A stretch of DNA of 64,000 bases from an uncultured delta proteobacterium (GCA_963792945.1 CAWBYM010000001.1:137244-201243), one strand, 5' to 3'. Numbered from the stretch's first letter, positions 19,449 to 60,179 are shown. Notes: a model not told the origin generated them from the sequence alone. Made by a program: numbers and translations.

Positions 19449-19859
19449 ATGTCGAAGAGCTGTGACATCAAACTGCGTGTGCCCTTTCACGACCTGGATC
19501 CCCTCCAGATCGTTTGGCATGGCAACTACATGAAATATTTTGACCAGGCCCGCTTCGGCCTTTTTAAACAGGCCGGTCTGGATCTTTACCGGTACTTCGT
19601 TGACCAGCGGATTGTCTTTCCCGTGACCCGGTTTTCTTCCAAACATATCGTCCCTCTCCGGTACGACGATGAGTTCATTTGCAAAGCAACTGTCGTCGAA
19701 GCCGTTTACAAGATCGGCATCTCATTTGAGATTCGGCTGGCCGACAGCGGGCTGCTCTGCACCCGGGGGGCCAGTGAGCAGGTCGCCGTGACGATGCCGG
19801 AAATGGAGATGCAGTTTGAAATACCGCGCGATATTACTGCGGCGCTGGGCTTCGCCTGA
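19449..19859 (+). CDS. Acyl-CoA/ACP thioesterase (4HBT/YbgC hotdog; ApeK-like)
   Basis: VPFHDLDPLQIVWHGNYMKYF motif. Confidence 0.88.
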   Translation: MSKSCDIKLRVPFHDLDPLQIVWHGNYMKYFDQARFGLFKQAGLDLYRYFVDQRIVFPVTRFSSKHIVPLRYDDEFICKATVVEAVYKIGISFEIRLADSGLLCTRGASEQVAVTMPEMEMQFEIPRDITAALGFA

Positions 19860-21589
19860 TGGATCGTCATCAGCGAGACGCTTTTGTCACCGGGTATGAA
19901 CGGCTTGCGGCATGGGCGGATCTGCTGGACGCCATCAACCTCTTCCCGGTTGCCGACCGGGATACCGGCCGCAACCTGCTGATCAGCCTCGCGCCGCTGC
20001 ACCGGTTGGGCTCCTGCCCGGTCGATACCGCACGCCAACTTCTCGTGGGTGCCACCGGAAATTCTGGCAACATCGCTGCGTGTTTTTTTGCGGGCTTTAT
20101 TCGGGAGAACCCGTTTTCGGACATGGTGCAGGCGGTAAGGATCGGACGTGATGACGCATGGCAGTCGATCGCCGACCCCCAAGCCGGAACCATGCTGGCC
20201 GTATTCGATGAATTGTTGAAGCGTGTGGAAAGCTCCCGGCCGCAACAATGGCTCGAAGATTTTCCGGCCTTTATTGCCCATTTGGAAAGAGCCGTTCAAG
20301 CCACGTCGGAAATTCTGCCACGGCTCAAATCCGCCGGCGTAGTCGATGCCGGCGCTCTGGGAATGTACATATTTCTGGAAGGTTTTTTCGGCCACCTTGC
20401 CGGCAAAACCGACCAGCTTCGATCGATTGCCATAACATTTCAGGGCAAACTCAAGCCCCAGGCCAGTGATGTGGCGACCGAAGAAAAAGGGTATTGCATC
20501 GACACCGTTATCAAGTTGGCGCAAAATTCCGATTCGTCACTCGCGGGGTTGGCGCCATACGGACAAAGCATCGTCGTTCATCGCGACAGCGGGCATATCA
20601 AGGTTCACCTGCACACCGAAGACCGTCAAGCCGTGCGTCAACGCTTGGAGGCTTTCGGCACGGTCGAGCGGTGGGCGGAAGAGGATATGGGAGCCCAAGG
20701 CAGAAAACGGCCGATCCCTAAGACGCAGCCGGCGCTTCACATCGTTACCGATGCCGCCGGGTCCGTTACGCGGGACGATGCCGCGCGATACGGGATGACC
20801 CTGCTTGACAGCTACATCGTTTGCGAGGGGCGATCGTTGCCGGAAACGCTGATGGCGCCGGAAACGCTCTATGGGCTGATGCGGAAGAACATCCGGGTGA
20901 CCACGGCCCAGGCCTCGGTCTTCGAACGGCACCAGCAGTACCAAAGTATTATCAGCCGTTTTGGATCGGCCCTCTATCTATGCGTCGGGTCGTTTTACAC
21001 CGGCAATTATCGGACCGTCGTCGACTGGCGGAAAAAAAACGATAATGCGAGCCGCTTGAGCGTCATCGACACCGGTATGGCATCCGGCCGTCTGGGGATT
21101 GTCGCGCTGGCTACCGCGCGCTTTTCGTGCCGAACCGGCGACCCCCGGGCGGTTGTCGATTATGCCAAGCGTGCCCTTGGATGTAGCGAAGAATTCATTT
21201 TCATCGACCGGCTTCAGTACCTCGCGTCCGGCGGTCGATTATCCAAGACCAAGGGATTTTTCGGAGATTTGCTGGGGGTCAAGCCGGTGGTCACCCCCAC
21301 GGCCCGCGGAGCGGTAAAGGTCGAGGCGGTCAGAAACCGGAACGGTCAACTCACTTTCGCCCTGGACTCGCTGCAACGGGGCCTGGGCGAGGACATCGCA
21401 TCGATTATCATGCTGGAGTATACCGATAATCTCAGGTGGGTGAGAGACACTGTTCTCCGAGAAATCAGCCAGCGCTACCCGAAGGCCGAAATTCTCCTTC
21501 AACCCCTTTCCCTAACCTCAGGAGTCCATATGGGTCCGGGGACCTGGGCTGTGGCATTCCTGCCTTCCGTTTCCCGGCCAGAAAGCTGA
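19859..21589 (+). CDS. DAK2 (FakA-like)-DegV (FakB-like) fusion protein
   Basis: N-term INLFPVADRDTGRNL, GNSG, GVVDAG, KVHLHT; C-term IVTDA, LASGGRL, VHMGPG. Confidence 0.85.
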   Translation: MDRHQRDAFVTGYERLAAWADLLDAINLFPVADRDTGRNLLISLAPLHRLGSCPVDTARQLLVGATGNSGNIAACFFAGFIRENPFSDMVQAVRIGRDDAWQSIADPQAGTMLAVFDELLKRVESSRPQQWLEDFPAFIAHLERAVQATSEILPRLKSAGVVDAGALGMYIFLEGFFGHLAGKTDQLRSIAITFQGKLKPQASDVATEEKGYCIDTVIKLAQNSDSSLAGLAPYGQSIVVHRDSGHIKVHLHTEDRQAVRQRLEAFGTVERWAEEDMGAQGRKRPIPKTQPALHIVTDAAGSVTRDDAARYGMTLLDSYIVCEGRSLPETLMAPETLYGLMRKNIRVTTAQASVFERHQQYQSIISRFGSALYLCVGSFYTGNYRTVVDWRKKNDNASRLSVIDTGMASGRLGIVALATARFSCRTGDPRAVVDYAKRALGCSEEFIFIDRLQYLASGGRLSKTKGFFGDLLGVKPVVTPTARGAVKVEAVRNRNGQLTFALDSLQRGLGEDIASIIMLEYTDNLRWVRDTVLREISQRYPKAEILLQPLSLTSGVHMGPGTWAVAFLPSVSRPES

Positions 21590-21647
21590 ACGGTCGCGCG
21601 AAACGCAGCCGCAATAGGTTTACCCGGGACTTTCAGAGCAGGCATTG

Positions 21648-22391
21648 ATGCCGTATACTGTTGACACATACGCCTGTGGGTCTATCCGAAACAGGTTTGC
21701 CGTCGTCATACCCGTTTACAACCATGGTCGAACGGTGGCCGGCGTGGTTCATAAAACACTCGCCCTGGGCCTGCCGGTAATCGTGGTGGATGATGGATCA
21801 ACCGATTCGACGTTTCGTGAAATCAGCGCCATCGAGGGGGTGCAGATTCTGCGTCATCGTCACAACAGGGGCAAGGGCGCCGCTATTTTAACCGGTTTTT
21901 CTGAGGCCGTAAAACACTCAGGCTGGGCGATCACCCTCGATGCGGACGGACAGCACGATCCGGTCGATGCCCGGCTTCTTATGGGGGCCATATCAGAAAC
22001 CGGGCCGCGGCCGATCGTGATCGGAAACCGTCAAGACATGTCCCGGCCCCACGTGCCCTGGACGAGCCGTTTCGGTCGCGAGTTTTCGAATTTTTGGGTC
22101 CGCGCTTCCGGTGGTCCGAAAGTACACGATTCTCAGAGCGGCTTCCGGGCGTATCCACTGCCCGATTGCTTGAAACTGGACGTTCGGTCCCGGCGGTTCC
22201 AGTTTGAAATCGAGGTTCTGGTCAAGGCGGGGTGGAATCGCATTCCAGTTTCAGAGGTCCCGGTGAGCGTCTCCTACCGGCCCGGTAGTTCCCGAATATC
22301 GCATTTCCGTCCGGTTGTCGATTTTTTACGGAACTTCGGCCTCTTCAGCCGGCTGATCAGTTTTCGGATTTTGACCCTGCGCTTCCTGTAG
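21648..22391 (+). CDS. Glycosyltransferase family 2
   Basis: VIPVYNH, VDDGSTD, NRGKGAA, LDADGQH, DSQSGFRAYP. Confidence 0.9.
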   Translation: MPYTVDTYACGSIRNRFAVVIPVYNHGRTVAGVVHKTLALGLPVIVVDDGSTDSTFREISAIEGVQILRHRHNRGKGAAILTGFSEAVKHSGWAITLDADGQHDPVDARLLMGAISETGPRPIVIGNRQDMSRPHVPWTSRFGREFSNFWVRASGGPKVHDSQSGFRAYPLPDCLKLDVRSRRFQFEIEVLVKAGWNRIPVSEVPVSVSYRPGSSRISHFRPVVDFLRNFGLFSRLISFRILTLRFL

Positions 22392-22760: not shown

Positions 22761-23648
22761 ATGGCCGGCATTTTTTACCGGGTATTGATCTTGCTGTCCC
22801 GAATTTTCGGACAATGGTTGTTTGACATCGTTGCCAGGGGGATCGCTGCCGGTTACTTTTTTCTGTCGCCCCGCAAGGTGAGCACCGGGGCGGCGTTCTA
22901 CCGGGCGCTTTTTCCGGCACAAAGCCGGCTGACTCACCTCTGGTGTACCTGGAAGCAGTTTCAGAACTTTACCAGTGTCTACATTGACCGACTTTTGGCC
23001 AAAGCAACCGATGAGATTGCCTGCACCCACACGGGATGGGAGCATATCGAAGATGCCGTCCGGCGCCATACCGGCGCTATCATCGTCATGTCCCACTTGG
23101 GCAACTGGGAGATCGCCGCGCATTTAATGGTTCGAAAATCCGAACAAATTAGAATCATGCTGTACATGGGCGCTCGGGCCAAAGCGGAAATCGAGCGTAT
23201 CCAAAAAGAGGACCTTGAGAAAAGGGGGGTCAAAATCGTTGCCGTCGAAAAAGGATGGGGTACACCCTTCGACCTAATGGAAGGATGGCGGTTTATCCAG
23301 TCGGGGGGGCTGGTGTCGATGACCGGCGACCTGGTGCGCGACTCCGGCCAGAGGACCGTGCCGGCCGTTTTTCTGGGACACGAGGTCCATCTGCCCGAGA
23401 CGCCCCACTTGTTGGCCATGCTTTCCGGGGCGCCGATTTTTTTCTTTTTTTCCCGTCGCACGGGCAACAAACGCTATCATGTCACCTTGTCGGAACCCCA
23501 TGCCATCGGTTCCGTACCTCGGTCTGAAAGATCCGCAGCCATGCGCCGATCGGCTCAAAAGTATGCCGATCTTTTAGAGGAAAACCTCCGCCGCAATCCG
23601 TTTGAGTGGTATCATTTTGAATCTTTTCTCGGAACGAAGCTGAGATGA
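22761..23648 (+). CDS. LpxL-like lipid A/lysophospholipid acyltransferase
   Basis: SHLGNWE catalytic motif, C-terminal PFEWYHF; AAGGAG RBS. Confidence 0.85.
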   Translation: MAGIFYRVLILLSRIFGQWLFDIVARGIAAGYFFLSPRKVSTGAAFYRALFPAQSRLTHLWCTWKQFQNFTSVYIDRLLAKATDEIACTHTGWEHIEDAVRRHTGAIIVMSHLGNWEIAAHLMVRKSEQIRIMLYMGARAKAEIERIQKEDLEKRGVKIVAVEKGWGTPFDLMEGWRFIQSGGLVSMTGDLVRDSGQRTVPAVFLGHEVHLPETPHLLAMLSGAPIFFFFSRRTGNKRYHVTLSEPHAIGSVPRSERSAAMRRSAQKYADLLEENLRRNPFEWYHFESFLGTKLR

Positions 23649-23747: not shown

Positions 23748-24050
23748 ATGAAACGCGATGAGATCCAAGCGGCTATCTTAAAAATATTCAGTGAAAATTT
23801 CGAAATCGACGCCCCCGGCATGGATGAGGATTTGAGGGATACTTACGAATTCGACAGCATAGATGCCATCGAACTGCTGCGCGAGATCGAGATTCTTCTC
23901 GACACCCGCCTGACTCGACCGGAAAAAAAGAGTGCCATGGAGATTCGGACGATCAGCCAGATCGTCGACTACGTAGAGACGCTATATTTGGCCAGAGCGT
24001 CCGCCGGGTCCTTCGAATTCGAGGGACGTCAAAGACCGGCGGGAAAATGA
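23748..24050 (+). CDS. Acyl carrier protein 1
   Basis: Acidic small protein with FDSIDAIEL phosphopantetheine site. Confidence 0.88.
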   Translation: MKRDEIQAAILKIFSENFEIDAPGMDEDLRDTYEFDSIDAIELLREIEILLDTRLTRPEKKSAMEIRTISQIVDYVETLYLARASAGSFEFEGRQRPAGK

Positions 24051-25288
24051 CGGCAAGAAGAGTTGTAATAACCGGCCGCGGTGCGATAACGCCCATCGGA
24101 CGCACCCGGGCTGACATCCTGCACCATCTGACCGAAGGAATATCCGGAGTCAAAAAGCTGCGTTCCGACGGGCTTCTCACCGACCATATCCACTCCGGCG
24201 TCTACGGGACGGTAGACTATCCTATCGAATACGACTTCAAGCGCAGTCACAGTAAAACAATGGGACCGGTATCCTACTATGCCTGCCAGGTGGCCAAGGA
24301 GGCGCTGGAATCCTCGGGTGTCGACGCGGAATTTATCACTTCGGGGCGTCTCGGAGTCGCGTTCGGGTCGACCCATGGCAGTCCATCGGTTCAACGGAGT
24401 ATATACAAAACGTTTTTCAGTGAATCGAAGCAGCAATTTTCTTCCATCGGTGCAGTCGATTATCTCAAATCCATGGTCCACACAACGGCCGTGAACATCA
24501 CCAAGATGTTCGGTATCACCGGCAGGGTCATATCCTCGTCGACAGCCTGCACCACCAGCAGCCAATCCATCGGTTTCGGGTATGAAACGGTAAAGTACGG
24601 TATGCAGGACGCCATGCTGTGCGGCGGGGCCGACGAGTACGATACGACCACCGTGGCCGTATTCGACAACCTGCTGGCCTGCTCCACGGAATTTAACCAG
24701 ACACCGCATATGACCCCCCGGCCCTTTGATGTCCGGCGGGACGGTTTGGTCGTCGGTGAAGGCGCCGGAGCCGTATTGCTCGAAGAATATGAACACGCCA
24801 AGAACCGCGGGGCCGATATCCTCGGTGAAGTGATCGGGTTCTCCTGCAATAACAACGGCGGGGATCTGATTCTGCCCAACAGCCGGGGGATAACCGATAC
24901 GATCAAACTGGCCCTGCAGGATGCCGCCATCGATCCAGCCAGGGTCGATTTTATCAGCGCCCATGCCACCGCGACCAAAATGGGTGACGTGATCGAGGCT
25001 CAGGCCATCGGAAGCATATACGGAGACGGGCCGTTGGTCGCCGGATTGAAGAGTTACATGGGACATACCATGGGGTCCTGCGGTGTAATAGAGGCCATCA
25101 TCACCCTGTTTATGATGGAGGAGGGCCTGGTGCCCCCGACGCTGAACTTGGACGAAATCGATCGGCGCTGTGCCATGATTCGGCACCCCGGCAGCATTGT
25201 CGAGAAGAAGATTCGGATTGCGGCGGTCCAGAATTTTGCCTTCGGCGGTGTTAACACCTGCCTGCTCCTCAAAAATTTCGGCGTGTAA
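24047..25288 (+). CDS. Beta-ketoacyl-ACP synthase (FabF/ApeR-like)
   Basis: SSTAC (Cys), SAHAT (His), GHTMG (His), NFAFGG; HTTAVN..FGITGR pattern resembles aryl-polyene KS. Confidence 0.9.
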   Translation: MTARRVVITGRGAITPIGRTRADILHHLTEGISGVKKLRSDGLLTDHIHSGVYGTVDYPIEYDFKRSHSKTMGPVSYYACQVAKEALESSGVDAEFITSGRLGVAFGSTHGSPSVQRSIYKTFFSESKQQFSSIGAVDYLKSMVHTTAVNITKMFGITGRVISSSTACTTSSQSIGFGYETVKYGMQDAMLCGGADEYDTTTVAVFDNLLACSTEFNQTPHMTPRPFDVRRDGLVVGEGAGAVLLEEYEHAKNRGADILGEVIGFSCNNNGGDLILPNSRGITDTIKLALQDAAIDPARVDFISAHATATKMGDVIEAQAIGSIYGDGPLVAGLKSYMGHTMGSCGVIEAIITLFMMEEGLVPPTLNLDEIDRRCAMIRHPGSIVEKKIRIAAVQNFAFGGVNTCLLLKNFGV

Positions 25289-25305: not shown

Positions 25306-26112
25306 ATGGAAGGCGGAGAAGAACCCAGGAAGGATCGACGATTTCAATCGACTGTCGATTTCGGCGTCACCTTGCTGCTGTGGTCATATTTTACAGCCGG
25401 GTTTCTTTTCTTCTTCTCTCCGTTCTATTTGTGCGCTTTTTTCTTCTCCGCAAACCGTGAGCGGTCTTTCCAGCGGCTCAACAGCCGATTCTACAGAGTT
25501 TTTTTTGCCCTAACGCGTTTGCTTTTACCGGGGCACCGTTGGCGGGTTTCCCCTGCTGTGGCGGGTATTCGGTCGTCGGTTGTCGTGTGCAACCACCGGT
25601 CCTATCTCGACTCGATCTTCCTGATCTCCTTGTACGAGAAGCACAATACGATCGTTAAGAGCCGCTTGATGGACATTCCGGTCTTCGGGAGGATGCTGCA
25701 GTTGTCCGGGTACTTACCCTCTTCCGCTGAGGGGCGGTTCGGCGAAATGATGTTCGAGCGGATCGAAGGGATGGATAGATTCCTGAACGAGGGAGGGAAC
25801 CTGATTATTTTTCCCGAGGGGACCCGCACCAAAACGGGAAGGATCGGCAGGCTCAACAAGGGGGCCTTCAAGCTGGCCCGGCGTTGCCGGGTGCCGATCG
25901 CCGTTCTTTTCATCCGCAACACCGAAAAAATGTTTCGTCCCGGGTCTTTTTCTTTCGATACCCGGGGTCCCAACACCATCCATCTCGAATTGATCGGCCG
26001 TATCGACGCGGAGGAGGTGAGGGCGGTCGGGGATATGAAAGCGGTGATGGCCAGGGTCCGCACAATGCTCGAAAACGAGAACGATAAAAAACGGTTGGAC
26101 ACCGGGTTATAG
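25306..26112 (+). CDS. PlsC-family lysophospholipid acyltransferase
   Basis: NHRSYLD and FPEGTR motifs, N-terminal TM segment. Confidence 0.9.
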   Translation: MEGGEEPRKDRRFQSTVDFGVTLLLWSYFTAGFLFFFSPFYLCAFFFSANRERSFQRLNSRFYRVFFALTRLLLPGHRWRVSPAVAGIRSSVVVCNHRSYLDSIFLISLYEKHNTIVKSRLMDIPVFGRMLQLSGYLPSSAEGRFGEMMFERIEGMDRFLNEGGNLIIFPEGTRTKTGRIGRLNKGAFKLARRCRVPIAVLFIRNTEKMFRPGSFSFDTRGPNTIHLELIGRIDAEEVRAVGDMKAVMARVRTMLENENDKKRLDTGL

Positions 26113-26337: not shown

Positions 26338-27837
26338 ATGAAAATCCTATTAATGTCAATGCCGGATGTGGCACCGGTCATTATGCACGAGAGTGCCTTT
26401 CACATGCCGAACCACGGCATAGCGAGCATCGGTGGTAATATCGATGACGGACACCATGTCTATATTGCCGATTTGATCCGCAAACGGCGGCACGTGGGTC
26501 AATATGTGGCCCGGCTGATGGAAAAAATACAGCCGGATCTGGTCGGCCTGTCGGCCATGGCCTGGCAGTTCAAAACATGCATCAAACTGATCAAGCTGAT
26601 CCGGCGTTCAATGCCGGAAGTTAAAATAGTCATCGGTGGATATCATGCGACTTTGATGTACGAGGAGATTGCCGATTCGGACGAGTCGTTGCTGATCGAT
26701 TTCATTGTTCGGGGGGAAGGCGAGGACGCTTTTCGGCGGCTTGTCAATGCGCTGACTGGCAGAGACAGGCTCGCTGACATTCCCTCGCTTTCATTCAAGG
26801 AGGGTCATCGATTCATCCACAACCCGAGAGCCGATCTCCTCGATCTGGCCAAATTGAAACCGCCCATCCGGGACAAGCGCCGGCTGACCTGGGGGTATCA
26901 CATCCTGAACAACAAAGTCGAATTGATCGAAACCTCCCGAGGTTGTACACGGGCGTGCAGTTTTTGCAGCATGAAGCACATGTACGGCCGCACTTTCCGT
27001 CCCTTTCCGCTGGAGCGGATTCTGAAAGACATCGATGACATCGTCTTCAATCGCAAAACCCACTGGGTATTTGTGGTTGACGACAATCTCGTTCTGGTAC
27101 CGGACAGGGTTGTGGAGCTATGCGATGCCATTATCGCTCGCCGATACCGCAACCTGAACTTCGTCGTTCAGGCGGATTGTGTGACCATGTCCAGGAACGA
27201 GGCGATGGTAAAAAAAATGGCGCAAGCAGGATTCAAGACCGTTTTTCTTGGAATCGAAAACGTCTCGAGCAAAAACCTGAAAACGGCGGGGAAAGGCGAT
27301 ATTGTCGAAGCCTCCCGCAAGGCCGTCGCCCTCTGCCACAGTTACGGTATCATGGTCGTGGGCGGTATGATATTCGGATTTCCAGACGATGACGAGCAAG
27401 ACATCATCGAGAATTACCGTTTTCTCCAATCGATCCAGGCGGATACGTCTTACTGTCAGATTCTGACCCCTTACCCCAAAACGGCCATGCGCCGGCAGTT
27501 GATCGAACAGCAACTGGTGACAAACAAGGACGATTTCTCCCGGTACAACGGGATGTGGGCCAACGTGAAAACCCGCCATCTCAGTTCGGAGCAGCTTCAG
27601 TACTTGGTCTGGTACCACCGGCAGAAGGTTCTGGGGTGGTGGGAACCATCGGAGAGGGTCCGGCGGAGAGGCCGTCTGTGGACGTCGATCTGGATCTATG
27701 GTTTTAAACCGTTTCTGAAAATTTACCTCGGTCGAAGACAGCGAAAATTGGGCTGGAAAGGGCGGTACGATATGGAACTGAAGCGGCTGCCGGAGATCAA
27801 CAGGTTTCCCGATTTGGAACAGGTACAGCGCGGATAG
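26338..27837 (+). CDS. Cobalamin-binding radical SAM protein 1
   Basis: B12 domain (PDLVGLS, GGYHAT, GEGE); TSRGCTRACSFC; GIE; LTPYPKT. Confidence 0.9.
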   Translation: MKILLMSMPDVAPVIMHESAFHMPNHGIASIGGNIDDGHHVYIADLIRKRRHVGQYVARLMEKIQPDLVGLSAMAWQFKTCIKLIKLIRRSMPEVKIVIGGYHATLMYEEIADSDESLLIDFIVRGEGEDAFRRLVNALTGRDRLADIPSLSFKEGHRFIHNPRADLLDLAKLKPPIRDKRRLTWGYHILNNKVELIETSRGCTRACSFCSMKHMYGRTFRPFPLERILKDIDDIVFNRKTHWVFVVDDNLVLVPDRVVELCDAIIARRYRNLNFVVQADCVTMSRNEAMVKKMAQAGFKTVFLGIENVSSKNLKTAGKGDIVEASRKAVALCHSYGIMVVGGMIFGFPDDDEQDIIENYRFLQSIQADTSYCQILTPYPKTAMRRQLIEQQLVTNKDDFSRYNGMWANVKTRHLSSEQLQYLVWYHRQKVLGWWEPSERVRRRGRLWTSIWIYGFKPFLKIYLGRRQRKLGWKGRYDMELKRLPEINRFPDLEQVQRG

Positions 27838-28968: not shown

Positions 28969-29006
28969 GGTCGCTAACACCTGCCATCGGATCCAGGCAC
29001 ACAATC

Positions 29007-30999: not shown

Positions 31000-31067
31000 G
31001 AGGCCACTCTCGGGTGATTTACCGGACTCTCGGGGCCTTTTCAGTCACGGTGTCATATGGATGGGCT

Positions 31068-32347: not shown

Positions 32348-32367
32348 CGCTAATTCGGCTCCCTCGA

Positions 32368-33111: not shown

Positions 33112-33188
33112 CCTCGCAACTGGTGATCAACCGTCGCCAAGTCAGCCGAGTGGGACCGATGCGGTATCAACGAATCCCTGACAGGCGG

Positions 33189-33626: not shown

Positions 33627-33867
33627 GGACGCCCGGCGATCAGGAAAAAAAGATTGAAAAGAGGACATTTATTCAATAAGCTAATTAATTCCAGCACGTG
33701 GTGAATTTAGCATAACAAATTGTAATAATTAGTAAAAAATCCACAGATTGTCAGCAAGGCGCAATGATACAACAAATTTTCGGTGGTGTAAAGCAAGGCC
33801 GGTACTGGAGATCGGCCTTAATCGACAATGACGTGCACACAGGGAAGGGTGACAGGCGGCGCACCGA

Positions 33868-42077: not shown

Positions 42078-42078
42078 G

Positions 42079-43344: not shown

Positions 43345-43345
43345 G

Positions 43346-47280: not shown

Positions 47281-47295
47281 GGAGCGCTGTCCAAT

Positions 47296-51296: not shown

Positions 51297-51351
51297 AGCG
51301 GTCTCCAGTGGTCGGTTTCTCCGAAACGACCGGCGACTTCCATCCCGCCCC

Positions 51352-52686: not shown

Positions 52687-52692
52687 AGCGTA

Positions 52693-53454
52693 TCAGTCCC
52701 TCAGCTGTTTGCCGGTGAGTAGCAGAAACAGTTCACCCAAGTCGGCACAATCCGGATGTTGGTCGATCAATTCCAGCGGCGGTCCTTTGACGAGGATCTT
52801 TCCCTGATCGATGACCGCCACCTGTGAGCACAGGGCCTGGGCTTCCTCCATGTAGTGGGTGGTGTAAATCATGCCGGTTCCCTGCTGTTTGAGTCCGGCA
52901 ATCATTTCCAGGATCATGTTGCGCGACTGGGCATCGATGCCGACCGTCGGTTCGTCCAGGAACAGCAGTTCGGGGCTGTGCAATATGCCGGCAGCGATGT
53001 TGGCGCGCCGTTTCATACCGCTGGAGAAGGCGGCTATCCGCTTGTCGGCATTGACAGTCAAGCCGACGAGGCTTAAGCATTCCTCAGTGCGGTTTTTGAG
53101 GCTGGGGCCTCTCAACCCCGCCAATCGACCGAAAAAATGCAGGTTTTCACGACAAGTCAAGCTCGGATACAGGGCGATCTCCTGGGGCACCAGACCAAAG
53201 TGTTTTTTGGCCTCACCGTTGCGCCTGGAAATGTCGATGCCACAGATCGTTACCTCTCCGCTGTCGGGTTCCATCAGCGTACTCATGATGGATATCGCCG
53301 TCGTTTTGCCCGCACCGTTGGGCCCCAGCAGACCCAAGACTTCCCCCGCCTGGACCTGCAGATCCACATCGCGCAGGGCTGGAATGCTGTCTCCCGGATA
53401 GGTTTTGCACAACTGCTTCACCACAAGTGGCGGATCTGCTCCGATCTTACTCAT
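52693..53454 (-). CDS. ABC transporter ATP-binding protein
   Basis: GPNGAGKT, FSSGMKRR, LDEPT, TTHYMEE. Confidence 0.93.
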   Translation of the reverse strand: MSKIGADPPLVVKQLCKTYPGDSIPALRDVDLQVQAGEVLGLLGPNGAGKTTAISIMSTLMEPDSGEVTICGIDISRRNGEAKKHFGLVPQEIALYPSLTCRENLHFFGRLAGLRGPSLKNRTEECLSLVGLTVNADKRIAAFSSGMKRRANIAAGILHSPELLFLDEPTVGIDAQSRNMILEMIAGLKQQGTGMIYTTHYMEEAQALCSQVAVIDQGKILVKGPPLELIDQHPDCADLGELFLLLTGKQLRD

Positions 53455-53625
53455 TCAGGCGGCTTTCATTGAGGTTGATTTTTTGGACCGGCTTGTATAA
53501 AAAGAGACTCCTTTTAAGGTATGTATATCCTAAACTGTACCAATATCGAAGTAGAAAATAGACGAATATCTCAACCGCCGTCGGCCAACAGATACCGGCC
53601 GGCGTTTTAATTTTCTGCCGAACCG

Positions 53626-54939
53626 ATGAAAATACTGCTCGTCAATCCACCCAACAGCGGCAAGAGTATCCCGGAAGAAGATTACGGGATCGGCAATATC
53701 AAGATGATCTTCAGGGGGGAGCCTCTGGCGCTTGAGGTCATTGCCGGAAACCTGGGGGAGCACGACGTCCGCATCGCCGACATGAAGGCCGATCCCCAAT
53801 CGCTCTCAGCCGGCCTGGCCGATTACGAGCCGGATCTGGTGGGGATCACCGGAGTGACATGTGAAGCCAATGCCGTGCTGAAGATCGCGACGGAAATGAA
53901 GCAGCGCTCCAATCCGATTGTCGTCGTCGGCGGCCACCATGCCTCGTGCGATCCGGGATACTTTAACCGCCCGGAGGTCGATTTCATCGTCGTAGGGCTC
54001 GGCAAACTGAGTTTCCGCGAACTGGTGGACGCCCTGGAGCGCGGCGATAGGGACGTGGACAAGGCCGGCGTGGCCAAAACCGTGCCCGGACGGCCGCTTT
54101 CGTTTCGGCCGCGTCGCTATACGACAGCCGATCTGGTCGACGATGCCGCCCCCCGCTACGACCTGGTTGAACATTACCGGGACACCTATGTCATGAGCGG
54201 GGTCGGCGGAAAAGCAGGCTATGTAGCGACGGCTTTCGGGTGCACCCATCGCTGTCATTTCTGTTCGATACCCCATATGACCGGTGGCCGTTACCTGTCC
54301 CACGGCGTCGATGCGGTTCTGCGCGACATGCGCATGTTGGAAGCCGTGCCTCTTATCCGTCTGGTGGACGCCAACACCTTCGGAGATGTGGCTGTCGCGG
54401 AGGCCCTGGCCCGGCGGATCATCGCGGCCGGTATGGAAAAACCCATCGTGGCGGATGTGCGTGCGGATACGGTCGTTCGGCACCCCGAAATTTTCAAGAC
54501 CTGGCGGCAGGCCGGGATGGCGGCAGCGGTTATCGGGTTCGAGGAAATCAGCGATGCGCGCCTCCAGGGGTTGAACAAACGTTCCGATGTGGCCGCCAAT
54601 ATTGCGGCGACCGCGATTCTCAAGAGGCTCGGCATCAGGATCATCGGTGATTTCATTATTTCACCGGATTATGAGGCGGCCGATTTCGACCGCCTCGAAC
54701 AGTTTGTCAGGGCCCAGGGTATCGACCTGCCCCTTCCGGCCGTGCTGACGCCGCTTCCCGGAACGGCTTTGTACAAGAGATGGCGGACGAAAATCACCGT
54801 TCATGACCTGGACTACTATACATTCACCAATGCCGTGATGCCGACCCGGATGCCGGAAAGAGAATTTTATCAAGCGTATGCAGAGCTGCTGGAAAAATTT
54901 CTCGGGCATTTAAATCAAGGAGAAAAGAAAGTACCGTAA
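53626..54939 (+). CDS. Cobalamin-binding radical SAM protein 4
   Basis: EPLALE, PDLVGIT, GGHHAS, FGCTHRCHFC, GFE, LTPLPGT. Confidence 0.9.
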   Translation: MKILLVNPPNSGKSIPEEDYGIGNIKMIFRGEPLALEVIAGNLGEHDVRIADMKADPQSLSAGLADYEPDLVGITGVTCEANAVLKIATEMKQRSNPIVVVGGHHASCDPGYFNRPEVDFIVVGLGKLSFRELVDALERGDRDVDKAGVAKTVPGRPLSFRPRRYTTADLVDDAAPRYDLVEHYRDTYVMSGVGGKAGYVATAFGCTHRCHFCSIPHMTGGRYLSHGVDAVLRDMRMLEAVPLIRLVDANTFGDVAVAEALARRIIAAGMEKPIVADVRADTVVRHPEIFKTWRQAGMAAAVIGFEEISDARLQGLNKRSDVAANIAATAILKRLGIRIIGDFIISPDYEAADFDRLEQFVRAQGIDLPLPAVLTPLPGTALYKRWRTKITVHDLDYYTFTNAVMPTRMPEREFYQAYAELLEKFLGHLNQGEKKVP

Positions 54940-56087
54940 TGGACGTGTTTATCAACGACATCGCCGCATTCCTGCCCAACGATCCGGTCGACAACGAGGC
55001 CATCGAGACGGTTCTGGGCCGGATCAACAATATACCCTCCAAGGCCAAACGGATCGTATTGAAAAACAACAAAATCGAGCGGCGCTATTATGCGCTCGAT
55101 GCGTCAACCCGACGCTTGACCCACAACAACGCCCAATTGACGGCGGCCGCCATCCGTGATCTCAGGCCGTACGCCGGTTTCAGCCTGCAAGATATCGAGT
55201 GTCTCTGCTGCGGTTCGACCAGCCCCGACTTCCTGTTTCCGGGGCATGCCTTGATGGTTTTGGGAGAGCTGGGACTCGATGAGTGCGAAGCCGTGACGAC
55301 CGCCGGCATCTGTATCAGCGGTATGACGGCCCTAAAGTTCGCCTTCATGAACGTTGCCGCCGGTTTTTCCTCCAATGCGGTAGCGACCGGTTCCGAACTG
55401 GCCTCCTCTTTCCTGAGGGCCGATTTCATGGCCCCTTATCTCAGCGAAGGCGAGGCGACCGATGTGGGCCGGCAGCCTGTGCGGGCCTTCGATGCCGATT
55501 TCCTGCGCTGGATGCTTTCGGATGGCGCCGGAGCCGTGTTCTTGTCCCATCGACCGAATCATGACCGGCCCTCACTCAAAATAGAATGGATCGATCACAG
55601 CTCCTATGCGGGGCAACTGGATACCTGCATGTATTCGGGCGGGATCAAATCAGAGGACGGCCGGGCCGTCGGCTGGCGCGAAAGGGAGGCGATCGATCCG
55701 GAATCCCGACCTTATCTCTTCGCCGTGCGGCAAGACATCAAGCTGCTCGATAGGCACATCGTCGATACGATGGGCAGGGCGCTGTCAACGGTGGTGAAAA
55801 AACGCCGGATAAGGCCGGAGGAGATGGACTGGTTCTTGCCCCATTATTCCTCGGCCTATTTCAGGCCAAAGTTTTACGACGAAATGAAACGGATCGGGTT
55901 CGAGATTCCCTACCATAAGTGGTTCACCAATCTGGCATCGAAGGGCAACACGGGTAGTGCGGCTATCTTCATCATTCTGGAAGAGATATTCCATTCCGGC
56001 AACCTGCAGAAGGGGCAGCAGCTGCTCTGCTTCATACCGGAAAGCGGTCGTTTTTCACACTGCTTCATGCTGTTGACGGTCGTTTAG
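54939..56087 (+). CDS. darB: DarB/StlD-family KAS III-type condensing enzyme
   Basis: FLPNDPV, AGICISG (Cys), DFLRWMLSDGAGA, FLPHYSS, KWFTNL..GNTGSA, PESGRFS. Confidence 0.85.
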   Translation: MDVFINDIAAFLPNDPVDNEAIETVLGRINNIPSKAKRIVLKNNKIERRYYALDASTRRLTHNNAQLTAAAIRDLRPYAGFSLQDIECLCCGSTSPDFLFPGHALMVLGELGLDECEAVTTAGICISGMTALKFAFMNVAAGFSSNAVATGSELASSFLRADFMAPYLSEGEATDVGRQPVRAFDADFLRWMLSDGAGAVFLSHRPNHDRPSLKIEWIDHSSYAGQLDTCMYSGGIKSEDGRAVGWREREAIDPESRPYLFAVRQDIKLLDRHIVDTMGRALSTVVKKRRIRPEEMDWFLPHYSSAYFRPKFYDEMKRIGFEIPYHKWFTNLASKGNTGSAAIFIILEEIFHSGNLQKGQQLLCFIPESGRFSHCFMLLTVV

Positions 56088-57249
56088 GTGCCGAGGGTTT
56101 GATCAAAAGAGAGGACGTTTTTTCCCTCCGTTGCGCTGTCCCGGCACCACGCCCTGAATCGTATTCCTGGCCGCGTTCCTGCGACAAAACGACCCAACCG
56201 ATGTCTCCCGCGCATCCTGTTGTCAGGCAGCCGATCTCTTGGCGGTCGACTTTTGCAGCGGCATTCGAAGGGGGCGTTCCCCGGCGCTGGTTATCCCCGG
56301 TCCGGGGCCAAGGGGGGTAGAACTTTCCGGTTTTAAGCATGATCGCCGCCATGGCCAAGTCAAAAGCCGGCCCCACCGGCAGTCTGCCATAGAGGTGCTC
56401 GTATGAGGCCATTTCTGGACCGTTACCAGCAAATGCATCAGGGTCGCTGCTCGAATGAATGATCGTAAGGGGCACCGGCGGGCCGGTCCGGTTATAGTCG
56501 GATACAGCCTGCACCCTGGCGGATTTGACACGGGCATAGACCGCTGCCGGCTGATCTTTTACCAGGACGAAAAAGGCACTCCCTTCACCGACCGGCGAAC
56601 GGTGAGACGGTAGCTGGGTCGGCCGGTTGGGTCGTCGTTCAGGCGCCAGGTACTGCCTGTAGTAACCCATGGACCGTGAAAATTCATCCGCACCGCCGAC
56701 CAGAGCGACATCGACGCGATCCTCTTCAATCCACTGGCATGCCGTCAAAAAGGCCAGGGGGACGGACATGTCGAACTGATTGATCGTCAGTGTCGGGCCG
56801 TGTCCGCCGAGAAAGGTTGCGATATGGGCCGCGGTCGCGCTGTGGACTGAATTGACGAAGCGGGTGGGGGACGTGCAGGGATTGTCCTCATCTATGTCGG
56901 TGTTGAGAGAGTCAAAGGTGTCGCAGGTGGAACCGTATCCGGTGGCGAAGACTATCCCCATCCGGCCGTGCCGAATTTTAGCCTGCCCGGCATCATCGAG
57001 GGCCAGAAAGCTCCCCAAAAGCGCCAGCCGCGTGAAATGATCGATTCTGCGCAGGGCCTTGCGTGGGACAAAATCCTCCAGTACGCTGGTGTCGGCTGTA
57101 TATCCGTAAACATCGACCGGACCGTTCGCGGTGTGGGTATTGAACGTTTGGACCGGGGGCGCGGTACCCACCAGTGCCGCCTGCTCGAGGGCCGACACAC
57201 CGCAGCCGAATCCGCCGACGACACCGATGCCGCTTATCGTTGCTTTCAA
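56065..57249 (-). CDS. KS chain-length-factor-like protein
   Basis: LRRIDHF, SPTRFVNSVHS, GGADE; no catalytic triad; follows a KS. Confidence 0.8.
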   Translation of the reverse strand: MKATISGIGVVGGFGCGVSALEQAALVGTAPPVQTFNTHTANGPVDVYGYTADTSVLEDFVPRKALRRIDHFTRLALLGSFLALDDAGQAKIRHGRMGIVFATGYGSTCDTFDSLNTDIDEDNPCTSPTRFVNSVHSATAAHIATFLGGHGPTLTINQFDMSVPLAFLTACQWIEEDRVDVALVGGADEFSRSMGYYRQYLAPERRPNRPTQLPSHRSPVGEGSAFFVLVKDQPAAVYARVKSARVQAVSDYNRTGPPVPLTIIHSSSDPDAFAGNGPEMASYEHLYGRLPVGPAFDLAMAAIMLKTGKFYPPWPRTGDNQRRGTPPSNAAAKVDRQEIGCLTTGCAGDIGWVVLSQERGQEYDSGRGAGTAQRREKTSSLLIKPSAPKRPSTA

Positions 57250-58451
57250 ATTCCGCTTTCCTTTGTTGCCAAGACCAGAGCCGAGTTATTGCCCCCGAAG
57301 GCCAGGGTGTTGGAAATGGCCACATGGCCGCTGACCGGCGTGACTTCAGCGACCGGCGATTCGGGCAGTTCAGGATCGGGCGTTGAAAAACCGGCGCTCC
57401 GTGGGATTTTCGCCTGCTCCAGACAGGCGACGGTGATAACGGCATCGATGGCGCCCGCTGCCCCCAGAGTGTGACCGATGTAGCCCTTGGTCGAGAAAAA
57501 GTTGATCTGCGGGAACATCTCGTGGAACAGGGTCGCCTCGACACGGTCGTTGTCGGGTGTGCCGGTGCCGTGGGCGTTGATAAACGCCATGTCTGCCGGA
57601 GCCAGCCCACCGGCGGTCAAAGCCTCCGTCATCGCCATTCGCAGGCCCTTGCCCTCCGGATGGGGGGCCGTGAAGTGATAGGCGTCGCTGGCCGCTCCGT
57701 ACCCCAATAAGTAGGCCCGAGGGGACTTGCCCCGCTTTCGTACCCTTTCATCGGATTCCAGAATCATCATCGCAGCGCCCTCCCCGAGATTCAAACCGCC
57801 GCGATAGGCATCGAAGGGCTTGCAAGGGGCAAGGTCGCAGTTCATGAGCGAAATGAACCCGTTGTAGGTGACCTGGTACAGTTCGTCGACCCCGCCGGTG
57901 ATAACGGCATCGCAGAGGCCCAGTCGAATCCACGCCGCCGCTAGACCGATTGCATCGGCGCTGGCGGCACACGCATTCACAATCGTCTGACGGGGACCGG
58001 ACAACTGGAACTCCTGGGCTATGTGAACCGCAGGATTGCTCATCAGGAAACGCTGGTTCGGCGTGATAAGGGGATTCTCGGCCGGCGAGACCGATCGGCG
58101 CAGGGCGCGATTGCCGATCGATTGATCGACTGAGGAGCCGATGCAGATGCCGATCCGTTCAGCGCCGGGCACCCGGCGGTCCCATCCGGCATCGGCAATG
58201 GCTTCCGCCACCGCCATCAACGCCATCTGGCTGTTGCGGAGTCGGCAGATGCGCTGAAAGCGGTCAGGGTCGAAAAAAGATTCTGATACTTCGAAGACCG
58301 GATAGGGAGGGGATGCGGCGGCGGTCAGCCGGGAGGGAGGTACTGGGTGGCGTTCTCCTTGAAAAAGAAAATCGATGCAGTTCGGCAAATCGAGTCCCGC
58401 AGCACAAAGGCAACCCATGCCGGTGATGGCGACCGGTTTCAAGCGCTTCAT
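57246..58451 (-). CDS. Beta-ketoacyl-ACP synthase
   Basis: NACAAS, NAHGTGT, GHTLGAAG, NTLAFGG. Confidence 0.9.
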   Translation of the reverse strand: MKRLKPVAITGMGCLCAAGLDLPNCIDFLFQGERHPVPPSRLTAAASPPYPVFEVSESFFDPDRFQRICRLRNSQMALMAVAEAIADAGWDRRVPGAERIGICIGSSVDQSIGNRALRRSVSPAENPLITPNQRFLMSNPAVHIAQEFQLSGPRQTIVNACAASADAIGLAAAWIRLGLCDAVITGGVDELYQVTYNGFISLMNCDLAPCKPFDAYRGGLNLGEGAAMMILESDERVRKRGKSPRAYLLGYGAASDAYHFTAPHPEGKGLRMAMTEALTAGGLAPADMAFINAHGTGTPDNDRVEATLFHEMFPQINFFSTKGYIGHTLGAAGAIDAVITVACLEQAKIPRSAGFSTPDPELPESPVAEVTPVSGHVAISNTLAFGGNNSALVLATKESGI

Positions 58452-58711
58452 GCAGCCCTGCTTTTTAATATAAAGGCCGCCATGGTGTTGATGGACTGGA
58501 GCACCGGGCGCCCCTCCTTCATGTTGCGTATTTCGACACCGAAATTGGCCTTGATCTGAAAGACGATTTCGATCGCATCGACCGAGTCCAGGCCGTATTT
58601 GTCACCGAAAAGAGGCTCGTCGTCGGCAATGTCTGCTGGATCGACATCGATGAGATCGAGTTCGGCGACCAGGATCTCTTTCAGTCTCTGTTTGAGTTCT
58701 GTCGTATTCAC
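58448..58711 (-). CDS. Acyl carrier protein 4
   Basis: YGLDSVDAIE motif. Confidence 0.9.
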   Translation of the reverse strand: MNTTELKQRLKEILVAELDLIDVDPADIADDEPLFGDKYGLDSVDAIEIVFQIKANFGVEIRNMKEGRPVLQSINTMAAFILKSRAA

Positions 58712-58747
58712 TCTGCAGTTCTAATTCGTATAATGATCAAATGAGTT

Positions 58748-59767
58748 TCAGGAAACAACGGTCCTCAATTCCTTGTAGAGCCGCTCCTCTCGGGATGCGC
58801 AGTCTTTCAGGATCTCCGCCATGGCGGGGTAGGTTTCCAATGCAGAGGCGCGGTTTTTACAAATTCGTGATCCGATAAGGGCGAAGTCGCGCCATCGGTC
58901 ACCGACGGTGGTCATCCGCTGTGAGAGGTCCAGCAACCGGTTATCGCCAAGGATGGAGGCGCTTTCCTGCAGAAACGCCGCATAGAGGAATCGGAAGCCG
59001 GCGCCGCCTGTGCCGATCTCTTCCTGCATGCGAATCAGCTGTCCGAGACTCAGTGCCGCCTTCTCTTCGCCCAGTTTTTGGGGCCAGTGTTCCAGTTTGC
59101 CGGCCAGATAGCGCATCCCCCTCACACCGATGAAACACACGGGTGCCCTGGTCATAACATTGCAAACGGCCTTGATTCCCTTGATGATGGCCGCATTCAG
59201 GTCAACATCGGTGGGCACCGAGGTGACGTAGTACATCTTGCCTTTCGGGGCCAAGGGGCCTTGGGCGAAGCGGGCCTTCATCAGATCTTTCTCGGGGCAG
59301 GTGACCGGATCCGGGAACACTGGATCGCTGATCAGGTAATCTCCGTTTCTGCGGCCGTAGGCGACCAGGTTGTGCATGTTGAAATGAAAGCGATAACGCT
59401 TCGGAAAATAAGAGAGCCAGTAAGCGCCTGTTCGGCATCCGACCGGCGTTTGCTGATCGAGTTTACGGTTTAAGGCCGACATGGCGATCTGGGGGTCACG
59501 AAATTTTTCCCACTTGATGTTGACATTCAATCGACGAGCAACGAGGTTGATGATCCGGCCGTTGCCGGCGCGAAAGGTCGTCAACGCTAAATTGTTGAGT
59601 CGGATGAACGGAAAATACCCGAAAAATAGCCCGCTGCCGATTCCGAAGGCCAAAGGTTCACTGATTGTCAGGCCATAGTGCGACAGCAAATTAGACGCGA
59701 CGCCGGACTCACAGTGGGCTGACTGCCGGTGTGTAAAGGGGATGCTCAGGTCGGTGTCAATCTTCAT
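58748..59767 (-). CDS. BtrH N-terminal domain / DUF4872 protein (papain/C39-like fold)
   Basis: HRQSAHCESG, FGIGSGLFF, FHFNMH, ISDP, QEEIGTGGAGFR. Confidence 0.82.
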   Translation of the reverse strand: MKIDTDLSIPFTHRQSAHCESGVASNLLSHYGLTISEPLAFGIGSGLFFGYFPFIRLNNLALTTFRAGNGRIINLVARRLNVNIKWEKFRDPQIAMSALNRKLDQQTPVGCRTGAYWLSYFPKRYRFHFNMHNLVAYGRRNGDYLISDPVFPDPVTCPEKDLMKARFAQGPLAPKGKMYYVTSVPTDVDLNAAIIKGIKAVCNVMTRAPVCFIGVRGMRYLAGKLEHWPQKLGEEKAALSLGQLIRMQEEIGTGGAGFRFLYAAFLQESASILGDNRLLDLSQRMTTVGDRWRDFALIGSRICKNRASALETYPAMAEILKDCASREERLYKELRTVVS

Positions 59768-60179
59768 AAAACGATGTTTCCCTATCGTCGGGTATGTTTG
59801 TGAGAGCTCCGGGAGAAATGCCGAAGACGTCGGCATAGCGTTTCAACAGGGCCTGGTCGAGGCGATTGAATCCGGCGGGCTTCAGATGGCGACGCACCCG
59901 CCAGCGCGACAACCCCATATAGCTGGCCAGCAAACCGACGTTCATCAGGTTTCTGGTCATATGATAGGCTAATGGACTGCGTTTACCGGATCGAATTTGT
60001 TCGATGACGGAAGCGATTTCCTTGCGGATCACCCCCCAGGCCTGCTGATTGGCGATATTCTTCGGTTCCCAACCCAGGCTGGGCACTTGAACATATCTGC
60101 CGTCGTCATCGACCGCATAGGTGATTTCCGACAGGCCTTGATTGAGGCCGACATCTTGAGGGACATCTTTTTTCTGCAT
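59757..60179 (-). CDS. Conserved hypothetical protein of dar/flexirubin-type clusters
   Basis: MQKKDVPQD, YAVD..G.Y...S.GW, SPLAYHM, WRVRRHLKP. Confidence 0.75.
   Translation of the reverse strand: MQKKDVPQDVGLNQGLSEITYAVDDDGRYVQVPSLGWEPKNIANQQAWGVIRKEIASVIEQIRSGKRSPLAYHMTRNLMNVGLLASYMGLSRWRVRRHLKPAGFNRLDQALLKRYADVFGISPGALTNIPDDRETSFYED

Follow-up and report, generated by a model that had tools for sequence, protein, structure and literature searches.

The aryl-polyene lipid (APEL) of ape gene clusters consists of an aryl polyene (APE) and a conjugated C26:5 fatty acid carried on N-acetylgalactosamine (GalNAc)-phosphate-glycerol; ApeD and ApeJ were proposed to act in its assembly, and ApeM, ApeL, and ApeN in its transport to the outer membrane (bioRxiv 10.1101/2020.12.19.423268). 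A polyene locus and a separate dar locus yield one hybrid pigment in Azoarcus (PMC3949708). Other lipid clusters contain radical S-adenosylmethionine (SAM) enzymes, here called rSAMs. Anammox Cluster I (KustE3603-3608), proposed for ladderanes, is described in two reports (PMC10139942; bioRxiv 10.64898/2026.05.19.726425) as comprising amxACP, amxFabZ, a FabF heterodimer resembling a ketosynthase (KS) and its chain-length factor (CLF), a phytoene-dehydrogenase homologue, and a cobalamin-dependent rSAM (B12-rSAM); anammox bacteria are reported to have no genetics. Clusters of type II fatty acid synthase (FAS II) genes with rSAMs were also noted in Desulfotalea psychrophila, Geobacter, and Pelobacter (Rattray et al. 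2009, PMC2649909), and "ladderane" calls of antiSMASH in Desulfobacterota are given with unknown function in a survey (PMC9902471). In this work, a locus of an uncultured delta proteobacterium of the sulfate-reducer type, which combines features of these systems, is compared with them. It occupies positions 19449-60179 (~41 kb) of a 64,000-nucleotide stretch of DNA (GCA_963792945.1 CAWBYM010000001.1:137244-201243), hereafter the window, and its genes are numbered g01 to g41.

The locus belongs to a recurrent, layered family of clusters in Desulfobacterota, built of an invariant cassette, an ape-type set, and a dar module. The observations behind this statement concern gene identities, motifs, conserved gene order, and co-occurrence. 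Their best explanation, which we consider somewhat probable, is that the locus belongs to a layered type II polyketide synthase (PKS)/FAS family derived from the APEL (ape) type, whose three layers act together. We rate the locus as a variant of the known ape/flexirubin-type cluster, and two of its features are new: the conserved rSAM-rSAM-KS-KS cassette and the exchange of DarA for a B12-rSAM.

Long open reading frames (ORFs) of the window between 16.8 and 63.3 kb were translated and scanned against Pfam and NCBIfam, which yielded about 40 co-directional or overlapping lipid genes in the 41 kb. The original prediction, made from the sequence alone, had counted some 38 contiguous genes; the cluster was confirmed, and the number rose to about 40. 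The families it had named were all found where it had placed them: four acyl carrier proteins (ACPs), each with a DS[IMV] motif, nine KS-family genes, four B12-rSAMs and two other rSAMs (CxxxCxxC in all six), two 4HBT thioesterases, FabG, a phosphopantetheinyl transferase (PPTase), LpxL-like and PlsC-like acyltransferases, glycosyltransferases (GTs) of the GT2 and GT25 types, an MMPL/RND protein, LolA, and an ABC-2 exporter. Four dehydratase-type ORFs were found instead of the predicted three, and the list, correct as far as it went, had lacked the FakA-DegV fusion, the NodB-type deacetylase, DarG, DarH, the methyltransferase domain fused to the MMPL protein, and a 122-aa ORF at 45765-46133 (minus strand). 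Since 7 of the 14 KS N-domain matches of the whole genome fall in these 41 kb and the gene order is kept in relatives (35-93% protein identity), this concentration of genes is not due to chance. Start/stop overlaps, which are signs of operons, occur at 19859, 24047/24050, 31727/31730, 32368/32371, 34131/34134, 38427/38430, 54939, 57246/57249, and 58448/58451.

Relatives of the KS-CLF fusion were found in metagenome-assembled genomes labelled delta proteobacterium, Desulfobulbia, and Desulfobacteraceae, and nine related regions were fetched and compared with the window by tblastn. The first layer, present in the same order in all nine, is the cassette composed of ACP3 (g20, 38140-38430), two rSAM genes (g21, 38427-39536, and g22, 39743-40741), two FabF-like KS genes with intact Cys-His-His (g23, 40827-42077, and g24, 42046-43344), and a YbgC/FadM-type thioesterase gene (g25, 43345-43825, start approximate; TIGR00051 72.3 bits, cut-off 68.7). 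The most conserved protein of the cluster is g22, 77-93% identical over the nine regions vs. 33-57% for the dehydratases and the KS-CLF fusion; g21 shows 65-79% identity. Across families and classes the conservation of g22 (73-93%) stays far above that of its neighbours, which is unusual for a tailoring enzyme. The two rSAMs are paralogues (~28% identical), each with an extra C-terminal Cys cluster. The predicted model of g22 (pLDDT 90.2) lies nearest to folds of SPASM/twitch enzymes, with a TM-score of about 0.5 (0.52 for anSMEcpe); the matches (anSMEcpe, SkfB, CteB, DesII, BlsE, viperin, and GDGT-MAS) point to an enzyme class and not to a reaction.

Beside the cassette lie, on one side, g16 (ACP2, 33868-34134; PP-binding 32.3 bits), the KS-CLF fusion g17 (34131-36296; ApeO-ApeC-like), g18 (36239-37642), a B12-rSAM of the TIGR04072 family, and g19 (37699-38103), an ApeI-like dehydratase (PF22818 36.6 bits, cut-off 28.5; best Protein Data Bank (PDB) matches 3esi and 6qsr). 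On the other side lie g26 (43804-44256), an N-terminal hot-dog of a PKS-type dehydratase (PF21089 27.8 bits), and g27 (44141-45334, start uncertain), a C-terminal hot-dog (PS-DH 60.4 bits) fused to the 4'-PPTase (ACPS 42 bits), the PPTase part being present only in G001, G002, and G076 among the fetched relatives. The g26 ORF and the N-terminal part of g27 look like one split double hot-dog. PDB sequence searches with ACP2 and ACP3 gave generic ACP matches alone and singled out no special ACP. In the G001 region (L001), the orthologues of g24, g18, and g09 are in two pieces, as is that of g06 in the G093 region, which may reflect frameshifts or assembly errors.

Orthologues of g22 (73-86% identity) were detected in 31 of 151 sampled genomes of the class (the source genome, G000, counted) and 24 of 301 sampled genomes of the phylum, while the genes around it fall to 35-55%. 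Among 1.84 billion representative proteins, only 39 matched g22 at E 1e-30 or better, the full-length orthologues forming one 50% cluster, and a protein-cluster search returned only "radical SAM protein" clusters, mostly of Thermodesulfobacteriota. Within the class sample, g22 accompanies DarB in 14/14 genomes and DarH in 17/18, vs. 31/151 overall, counts which come from related, non-independent genomes. The original prediction had presented the locus as a merger of aryl-polyene/flexirubin parts and B12-rSAM lipid-island parts; both sets are indeed present, the latter through g18, which belongs to the TIGR04072 "lipid biosynthesis B12/rSAM" family (388.5 bits, cut-off 360), but with this distribution the merger is a property of a recurrent family and not of this locus.

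The second, ape-type layer is represented by g11 in eight of the nine regions, FabG in eight, and the full-length KS-CLF fusion in seven; LolA, DUF3261, the MMPL-methyltransferase, GT25, and the deacetylase recur as well, as does a group consisting of thioesterase, FakA-DegV, GT2, LpxL-like acyltransferase, ACP1, KS, and PlsC. The cassette of G232 is kept, with most of this layer (the KS-CLF/LolA/FabG set) absent. The third layer, the dar module, is a single block next to the assembly genes of G075 and G093; in the window and G002 its genes are divided between the two sides of the cassette, in G076 it is located elsewhere, and G001 has no DarB.

The dar module of the window opens with the g33-g34 pair (51352-53454, minus strand), an ABC-2 permease and ATPase presumably serving as its exporter, which adjoins dar genes in G071, G076, G090, and G093 and has the same pair as counterpart in the Azoarcus dar cluster. 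It is followed by g35 (B12-rSAM 4, 53626-54939) and g36 (54939-56087), a StlD/DarB-family ketosynthase-cyclase (NF005293 528 bits, cut-off 450; 447 bits on the narrower resorcinol_DarB model, below its cut-off of 550). Further, on the minus strand, there are DarK/DarJ/DarC-like genes for a CLF (g37, from 56065), a KS (g38, from 57246), and ACP4 (g39, 58448-58711), in the same order in G090, G115, and G118, and then the BtrH-related acyltransferase DarH (g40, 58748-59836; NF053550 454.8 bits, cut-off 300) and a DarG-family protein (g41, 59757-60179; NF053536 144.9 bits, cut-off 70). DarB, DarH, and DarG thus all pass NCBIfam cut-offs.

DarB alone gives a dione, which DarA aromatises. Directly upstream of DarB in G075 lies a 307-aa gene that no NCBIfam model matches, identified as DarA by the name NCBI gives its homologues, "dialkylresorcinol condensing enzyme DarA". 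With this protein as a query, tblastn searches found DarA adjoining DarB in G093 and G076 (E 1e-96) and none in G000 (95.6% complete; HMMER-scored genome search in addition), G001, or G002. In the window it is g35 that holds the place of DarA, ending where DarB starts (54939). DarB was present in 14 of the 151 genomes of the class sample: DarA (at least 50% identity) occurred in seven of them, next to DarB in six, and an orthologue of g35 in the other seven (61-67% identity in the six besides G000), in each case directly upstream of DarB; no DarB genome had both partners and none had neither. Three more genomes carry a 39%-identical DarA-like gene without DarB. As an instance of non-orthologous replacement in the biosynthesis of resorcinols/cyclohexanediones, this exchange is specific and open to test. 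It may also be mentioned that in G075 a SPASM-type rSAM gene (L020:5261-6316), absent from the window, lies directly upstream of DarA; its 59%-identical copy in the G308 region (11715-12731) adjoins a g08-type B12-rSAM.

The remaining genes of the locus begin with g01 (19449-19859), an ApeK-like 4HBT/YbgC-type thioesterase (PF03061 33.3 bits), which in relatives always adjoins the FakA-DegV gene. The latter is g02 (19859-21589), a fatty-acid-kinase-like FakA(Dak2)-DegV fusion (DegV 115.5, Dak2 56.2, FakA-like_M 39.2 bits), with copies of 40-65% identity beside the cluster in G002, G075, G093, G168, and G308. They are followed by g03 (21645-22391), a GT2 glycosyltransferase of the polyprenyl-phosphate-sugar-synthase type similar to the glycosyl part of ApeJ (PF00535 70.2 bits; best NCBIfam models AglJ and PpgS, both below cut-off), g04 (22761-23648), an LpxL/PIM-type lipid acyltransferase (PF03279 46.7 bits), and g05 (23748-24050), encoding ACP1 (PP-binding 28.8 bits, DSI motif). 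The stand-alone KS g06 (24047-25288; NF006587 397 bits, below the cut-off of 470) is ApeR-like by its best model, PRK09116, which we take to be linked to ApeR; g07 (25306-26112) encodes an ApeD-like PlsC-type glycerolipid acyltransferase (PF01553 69.4 bits). B12-rSAM 1 (g08, 26338-27837; BchE/HpnR-like, CTRACSFC motif) has orthologues only in G001, G002, G232, G308, and G142, and precedes a short KS (g09, 27847-28968) and its truncated CLF-type partner (g10, 28965-29711, start approximate; ketoacyl-synt 30 bits).

A minus-strand operon at 29734-33668 contains B12-rSAM 2 (g11, 29734-30999; B12-binding 26.8 bits, below the Pfam cut-off of 32.1; Radical_SAM weak, E 0.0012; CRYNCYPC motif), which is highly conserved (60-86% identity in 8/9 relatives), a DUF3261-like (ApeN/LolB-like) gene (g12, 31068-31730; PF11659 16.6 bits, below cut-off, with the position kept in relatives), the ApeL-like LolA carrier gene (g13, 31727-32371; PF03548 55.8 bits; LolA2_flexi 102 bits, below the cut-off of 125), the FabG/ApeQ-type ketoreductase gene (g14, 32368-33111; NF004200 304.6 bits, cut-off 273; FlxB 307 bits, below the cut-off of 340), and that of an ApeP-like dehydratase (g15, 33189-33668; PF22817 28.4 bits, marginally above the cut-off of 27). 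Between the dehydratase-PPTase gene and the GT25-like gene (g29, 46444-47280; PF01755 33.8 bits, a weak match) sits g28b (45765-46133, minus strand), the 122-aa ORF mentioned above, which encodes a hydrophobic protein with no Pfam match and with 82, 61, 53, and 55% identity to proteins of G002, G001, G076, and G168, respectively; it may be a candidate counterpart of the small membrane protein ApeG. Next to it, at 45509-45784 (plus strand), about 50 residues in frame are conserved at 59% in G002 and G076, and these could represent either a short gene or the terminal part of a longer one. The ApeM-like MMPL/RND-type exporter g30 (47296-50394; PF03176 23.2 bits, weakly above the cut-off of 20.5; partial matches to HAE3 and HpnN) ends with a SAM methyltransferase domain (Methyltransf_25 41 bits, residues 856-949), a fusion that is full-length in G002, G076, and G168 too; it is followed by the NodB-type polysaccharide deacetylase gene g31 (50388-51296; PF01522 92.7 bits).

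An alignment of KS domains revealed Cys-His-His to be intact in six of them (g06, g09, the N-terminal half of g17, g23, g24, and g38) and the active-site Cys to be absent from the three CLF-type domains (g10, the C-terminal half of g17, and g37), and therefore the locus encodes three KS/CLF pairs (one of them fused), one stand-alone KS, and one FabF-like KS pair, besides DarB. The best PDB matches of g17 were 9s5h_B, 1j3n, 6kxd, and 6qsp, with 166 bits against 6qsp_A, a "Beta-ketoacyl synthase" chain which is presumably ApeO. Among the B12-rSAMs, g18 is a true TIGR04072 member, although only 28 bits over the cut-off, and g08, g11, and g35 are far below every curated cut-off. Elsewhere in G000, a second, weaker TIGR04072-like B12-rSAM (141.5 bits; C25:309160-310236) and about a dozen further B12-rSAM paralogues were noticed. 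The same genome has KS domains within open frames of 1593-2394 aa (C6:161796-196894 and C20:205698-212791), and it therefore carries large multidomain PKS- or polyunsaturated fatty acid synthase-like genes outside the locus.

Proteins above the TIGR04072 cut-off occur in 52 of the 151 class genomes and fall into two score groups. The high one (19 genomes, at least 569 bits) has g22 in none of its genomes, and the low one (33 genomes, 360-420 bits or split), to which g18 belongs, has it in 29. Two islands of the high group, in G089 and G032, are also ape-like (KS, LolA-like, MMPL, GT2, LpxL-like acyltransferase, ACP, KS/CLF, FabG) and contain a g11 orthologue at 58-60% identity, without the g20-g24 cassette; with g18 their TIGR04072 protein shares only 30-32% identity. 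These islands may represent the Desulfotalea type of Rattray et al. (2009).

By analogy with the described systems, the locus most likely yields a radically tailored polyene/alkyl-cyclohexanedione lipid that is anchored to a hexosamine-glycerolipid and exported. The cassette, together with the split dehydratase, ACP2, the fused KS-CLF, the TIGR04072 B12-rSAM, and the ApeI-like dehydratase, would build an ACP-bound polyunsaturated or alkyl chain, and the rSAMs would modify it while ACP-bound by C-methylation and/or by C-C bond formation or oxidation. This chain would stand in for the aryl head group, given the lack of aryl-starter genes. The ketoreductase and the ApeP-like dehydratase could complete the chain-building cycle, and the thioesterase and the FakA-DegV fusion may release the acid and then re-activate it. 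The PlsC-like and LpxL-like acyltransferases, GT2, GT25, and the NodB-type deacetylase, perhaps freeing an amine for N-acylation, would mount the acid on a hexosamine-(phospho)glycerolipid, which the MMPL-methyltransferase, LolA-like, and DUF3261-like proteins would carry to the outer membrane. The KS/CLF/ACP4 of the dar module would supply acyl chains for DarB to condense to a 2,5-dialkylcyclohexane-1,3-dione, g35 in place of DarA might aromatise or C-methylate this ring, DarH and DarG might attach it to the lipid, and export would follow through the ABC pump. The radical-tailored, glycosylated envelope lipid of the original prediction appears to fit the gene content and the published APEL structure, and its description of the locus as uncharacterised agrees with the searched literature (supplementary tables not covered), where only genome-mining surveys and other systems were found and no characterised counterpart; a 2026 review (PMC13459092) names ladderanes and the Jaw5 product as the only rSAM-modified ketoacyl lipids. 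Short contigs, 95-99% identical to the window, from four metatranscriptome libraries of two studies covered 25, 27, 25, and 15 of the 30 bins of 36239-56238, where DNA carry-over is not excluded, a control stretch is lacking, and uncovered bins are uninformative.

Several points weigh against such a joint product. Every chemical step and the final structure are drawn by analogy, no product being known for any member of the family; some assignments are marginal (the MMPL protein at 23.2 bits, the ApeP-like dehydratase at 28.4 bits, DUF3261 below cut-off, TIGR04072 at +28 bits); and an aryl starter derived from chorismate might be made by genes at another site of the genome. In a DarB tree, the two partner types are split with a single change (branch support 77/83), so one evolutionary swap is enough to explain the 7-vs-7 distribution of DarA and B12-rSAM, which may record a single event, and 14 genomes are not 14 independent trials; the co-occurrence counts are likewise taken from non-independent genomes. 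It should be stressed that the layers are separable, and for this reason one joint product is not proven: G076 has DarA-DarB on contig C1, the cassette on contig C2, and DarG/DarH 1.77 Mb from the cassette, the DarA-DarB genes of G093 lie ~445 kb from its cassette, G001 keeps the cassette without DarB, and G232 keeps it without the KS-CLF/LolA/FabG set. These arrangements would be expected if two or three independent neighbours made their own products, i.e., if an rSAM cassette that tailors fatty acids, an ape-like cluster for a lipid, and a dar module yielding free dialkylresorcinol/cyclohexanedione compounds as signals or antioxidants merely adjoined each other, to which we give a minor though real chance. 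Such independence is opposed by the cassette rSAM accompanying DarB in all 14 genomes of the class sample, against 31/151 overall, and by assembly and dar genes flanking the cassette on both sides in the window and G002; distance itself is no argument for separate products, considering the single hybrid pigment made from separate Azoarcus loci (PMC3949708).

Other readings concern the chemistry. Since methylation is the most frequent activity of B12-rSAMs, since g18 and g35 have their nearest solved relatives in the methyltransferases TsrM (tryptophan C2-methyltransferase, 114.6 bits) and TokK (30.6 bits), respectively, and since FakA-DegV and PlsC-like genes tie the locus to phospholipid synthesis, the cluster might only C-methylate or decorate ordinary fatty acids for bulk phospholipids as a membrane adaptation, its ape-like genes serving general lipid trafficking. 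We find this quite unlikely, as the patchy spread (31/151 and 24/301) fits an accessory trait, the three KS/CLF pairs and ApeI/ApeP-type dehydratases with no enoyl reductase in the cluster point to a polyene and not to saturated chains, and a dedicated LolA/MMPL/ABC export set is present. A ladderane-like pathway, in which the TIGR04072 B12-rSAM with ACP, KS/CLF, and dehydratase would make cyclobutane-type or otherwise polycyclised fatty acids, is highly improbable, even though g18 exceeds the TIGR04072 cut-off, ACP2, KS-CLF, B12-rSAM, and dehydratase mirror amxACP, amxFabF2/amxFabFmut, B12-rSAM, and amxFabZ as presented in the anammox reports, and the best PDB match of the KS half of g17 is 9s5h_B. 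No phytoene-dehydrogenase homologue was found in the window, and none of the 11 Amino_oxidase (PF01593) matches of a genome search is on contig C1. The dehydratase is ApeI-like and not FabZ-like, and the g18 score is marginal, with the low identity to the high-scoring group given above. Moreover, the anammox cluster is reported to be exclusive to ladderane producers (PMC10139942; bioRxiv 10.64898/2026.05.19.726425), and a search for ladderanes in Desulfotalea detected none (PMC2649909). A bolder idea, which we regard as rather unlikely, is that the cassette and the TIGR04072 and g11 B12-rSAMs form C-C bonds radically on the growing ACP-bound polyketide, giving a carbocyclic or heavily C-methylated head group that replaces the aryl group in anaerobes, and that g35 takes over the role of the DarA aromatase by radical chemistry; if true, radical-SAM tailoring of ketoacyl lipids would for the first time have a tractable model other than anammox bacteria, and several carriers among the sampled genomes are assembled in one or two contigs. 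Four of the sampled genomes with 1-6 contigs (G076, G040, G168, and G245) may come from isolates.

The left border of the cluster is marked by a 5-oxoprolinase-type trio (LamB/YcsF, CT_C_D, and CT_A_B genes; 16818-19246, plus strand) directly upstream, since it is syntenic only in the close relative G002. Downstream, at 60455-62297 and outside the cluster, there are a gene for a TRL-like small protein (weak match), an unassigned 281-aa ORF, and a gene for a LON substrate-binding-domain protein. Plus-strand ORFs at 29923-30492, 30405-30746, 30694-31017, 31014-31583, 31637-32353, 32776-33126, 33123-33512, 45369-45827, and 51289-51897 gave no family match and were taken as shadow ORFs, as was the minus-strand ORF at 39560-40849, lying opposite to a gene.

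Returning to the known systems, the g16-g19 block mirrors anammox Cluster I in bringing together an ACP, a KS/CLF-like pair, a dehydratase, and a TIGR04072 cobalamin-dependent rSAM. Here, however, KS and CLF are fused and the block is embedded among ape-like and dar genes, g19 is of the ApeI type with FabZ matches of only E 3e-4 or weaker in the PDB search, no amxFabZ-type dehydratase or amxACP was matched (the ACP searches being generic only), and the anammox cluster of six genes, as described, has nothing that corresponds to the second rSAM pair or the FabF pair. With six rSAMs inside a type II PKS/FAS cluster, a presence in about one fifth of the sampled class genomes, and g22 73-86% identical across the phylum, the family therefore offers another route to rSAM lipid chemistry than anammox bacteria. 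The clusters of Desulfotalea, Geobacter, and Pelobacter (PMC2649909) resemble the locus in being lipid islands of deltaproteobacteria that contain several paralogues of FabF together with SAM-radical enzymes, but are reported to have phytoene-dehydrogenase-like and phenylacetyl-CoA-ligase-like genes, absent here, and the high-scoring TIGR04072 islands do not contain the ACP-rSAM-rSAM-KS-KS cassette (g22 in 0/19 genomes). The layered anatomy of the family also says what the "ladderane" genome-mining calls in Desulfobacterota contain.

The comparison with the ape clusters of Xenorhabdus doucetiae and E. coli CFT073 (bioRxiv 10.1101/2020.12.19.423268) showed counterparts of every core gene (only a putative one for apeR) and most accessory genes in the window; of the ape core drawn in Fig. 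1a of that source, the KS-CLF pair, ACPs, apeI/apeP dehydratases, apeQ ketoreductase, and apeM transporter were found. Shared features are a KS and CLF (apeO/apeC, fused here), several ACPs (apeE/apeF), ApeI-like and ApeP-like dehydratases, a ketoreductase, a thioesterase, LolA-like and DUF3261 proteins, and an exporter of the RND/MMPL type, to which the methyltransferase is fused in this locus; an acyltransferase of the PlsC type and a glycosyltransferase accompanied by an acyltransferase are also common to both, and a second KS may correspond to apeR; thus, the proteins proposed for assembly and transport of APEL (ApeD, ApeJ, ApeM, ApeL, and ApeN) are all represented. Unlike ape, the locus has three KS/CLF pairs vs. 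one, six rSAMs, an additional FabF pair, the FakA-DegV fusion, GT25, the NodB-type deacetylase, and the dar module, and it has no aryl-starter activation gene: none was found in the cluster, and none of the 16 AMP-binding matches of the genome is on contig C1 (a chorismatase/chorismate-lyase route of the XanB2 type was not searched for). The only aromatic ammonia lyase of the genome, on contig C25, was rejected as an aryl-starter enzyme, its neighbours looking like a hut operon by the N-termini of their ORFs, with no family search of them.

Parts of the aryl-polyene/flexirubin type, which the original prediction had seen in the locus, were also recognised (KS/CLF, ApeI-/ApeP-like dehydratases, ketoreductase, LolA, DUF3261, MMPL, and GT2, with DarB, DarG, and DarH above their cut-offs). 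Differences from the flexirubin clusters of Bacteroidota and the arcuflavin clusters of Azoarcus sp. BH72 are the DarA gene, not found in the genome and with a B12-rSAM gene in its place, the added rSAM cassette, the host, which is an anaerobe of a different phylum, and the starter genes, as neither tyrosine ammonia lyase/4-coumarate:CoA ligase nor AMP-ligase genes were found here (the XanB2-type chorismatase being outside the search). In those systems, as presented in PMC3949708, and in the locus alike, DarB, BtrH-like (DarH), and DarG-family proteins, an ACP, a KS, and an ABC transporter adjoin an ape-like polyene cluster; the flexirubin NCBIfam models FlxB (307 of 340 bits) and LolA2 (102 of 125 bits) are nearly matched by the locus, and its dar content (DarB, DarH, DarG, ACP4, KS, CLF, and the ABC pair) matches the table of the Azoarcus dar cluster in that paper.

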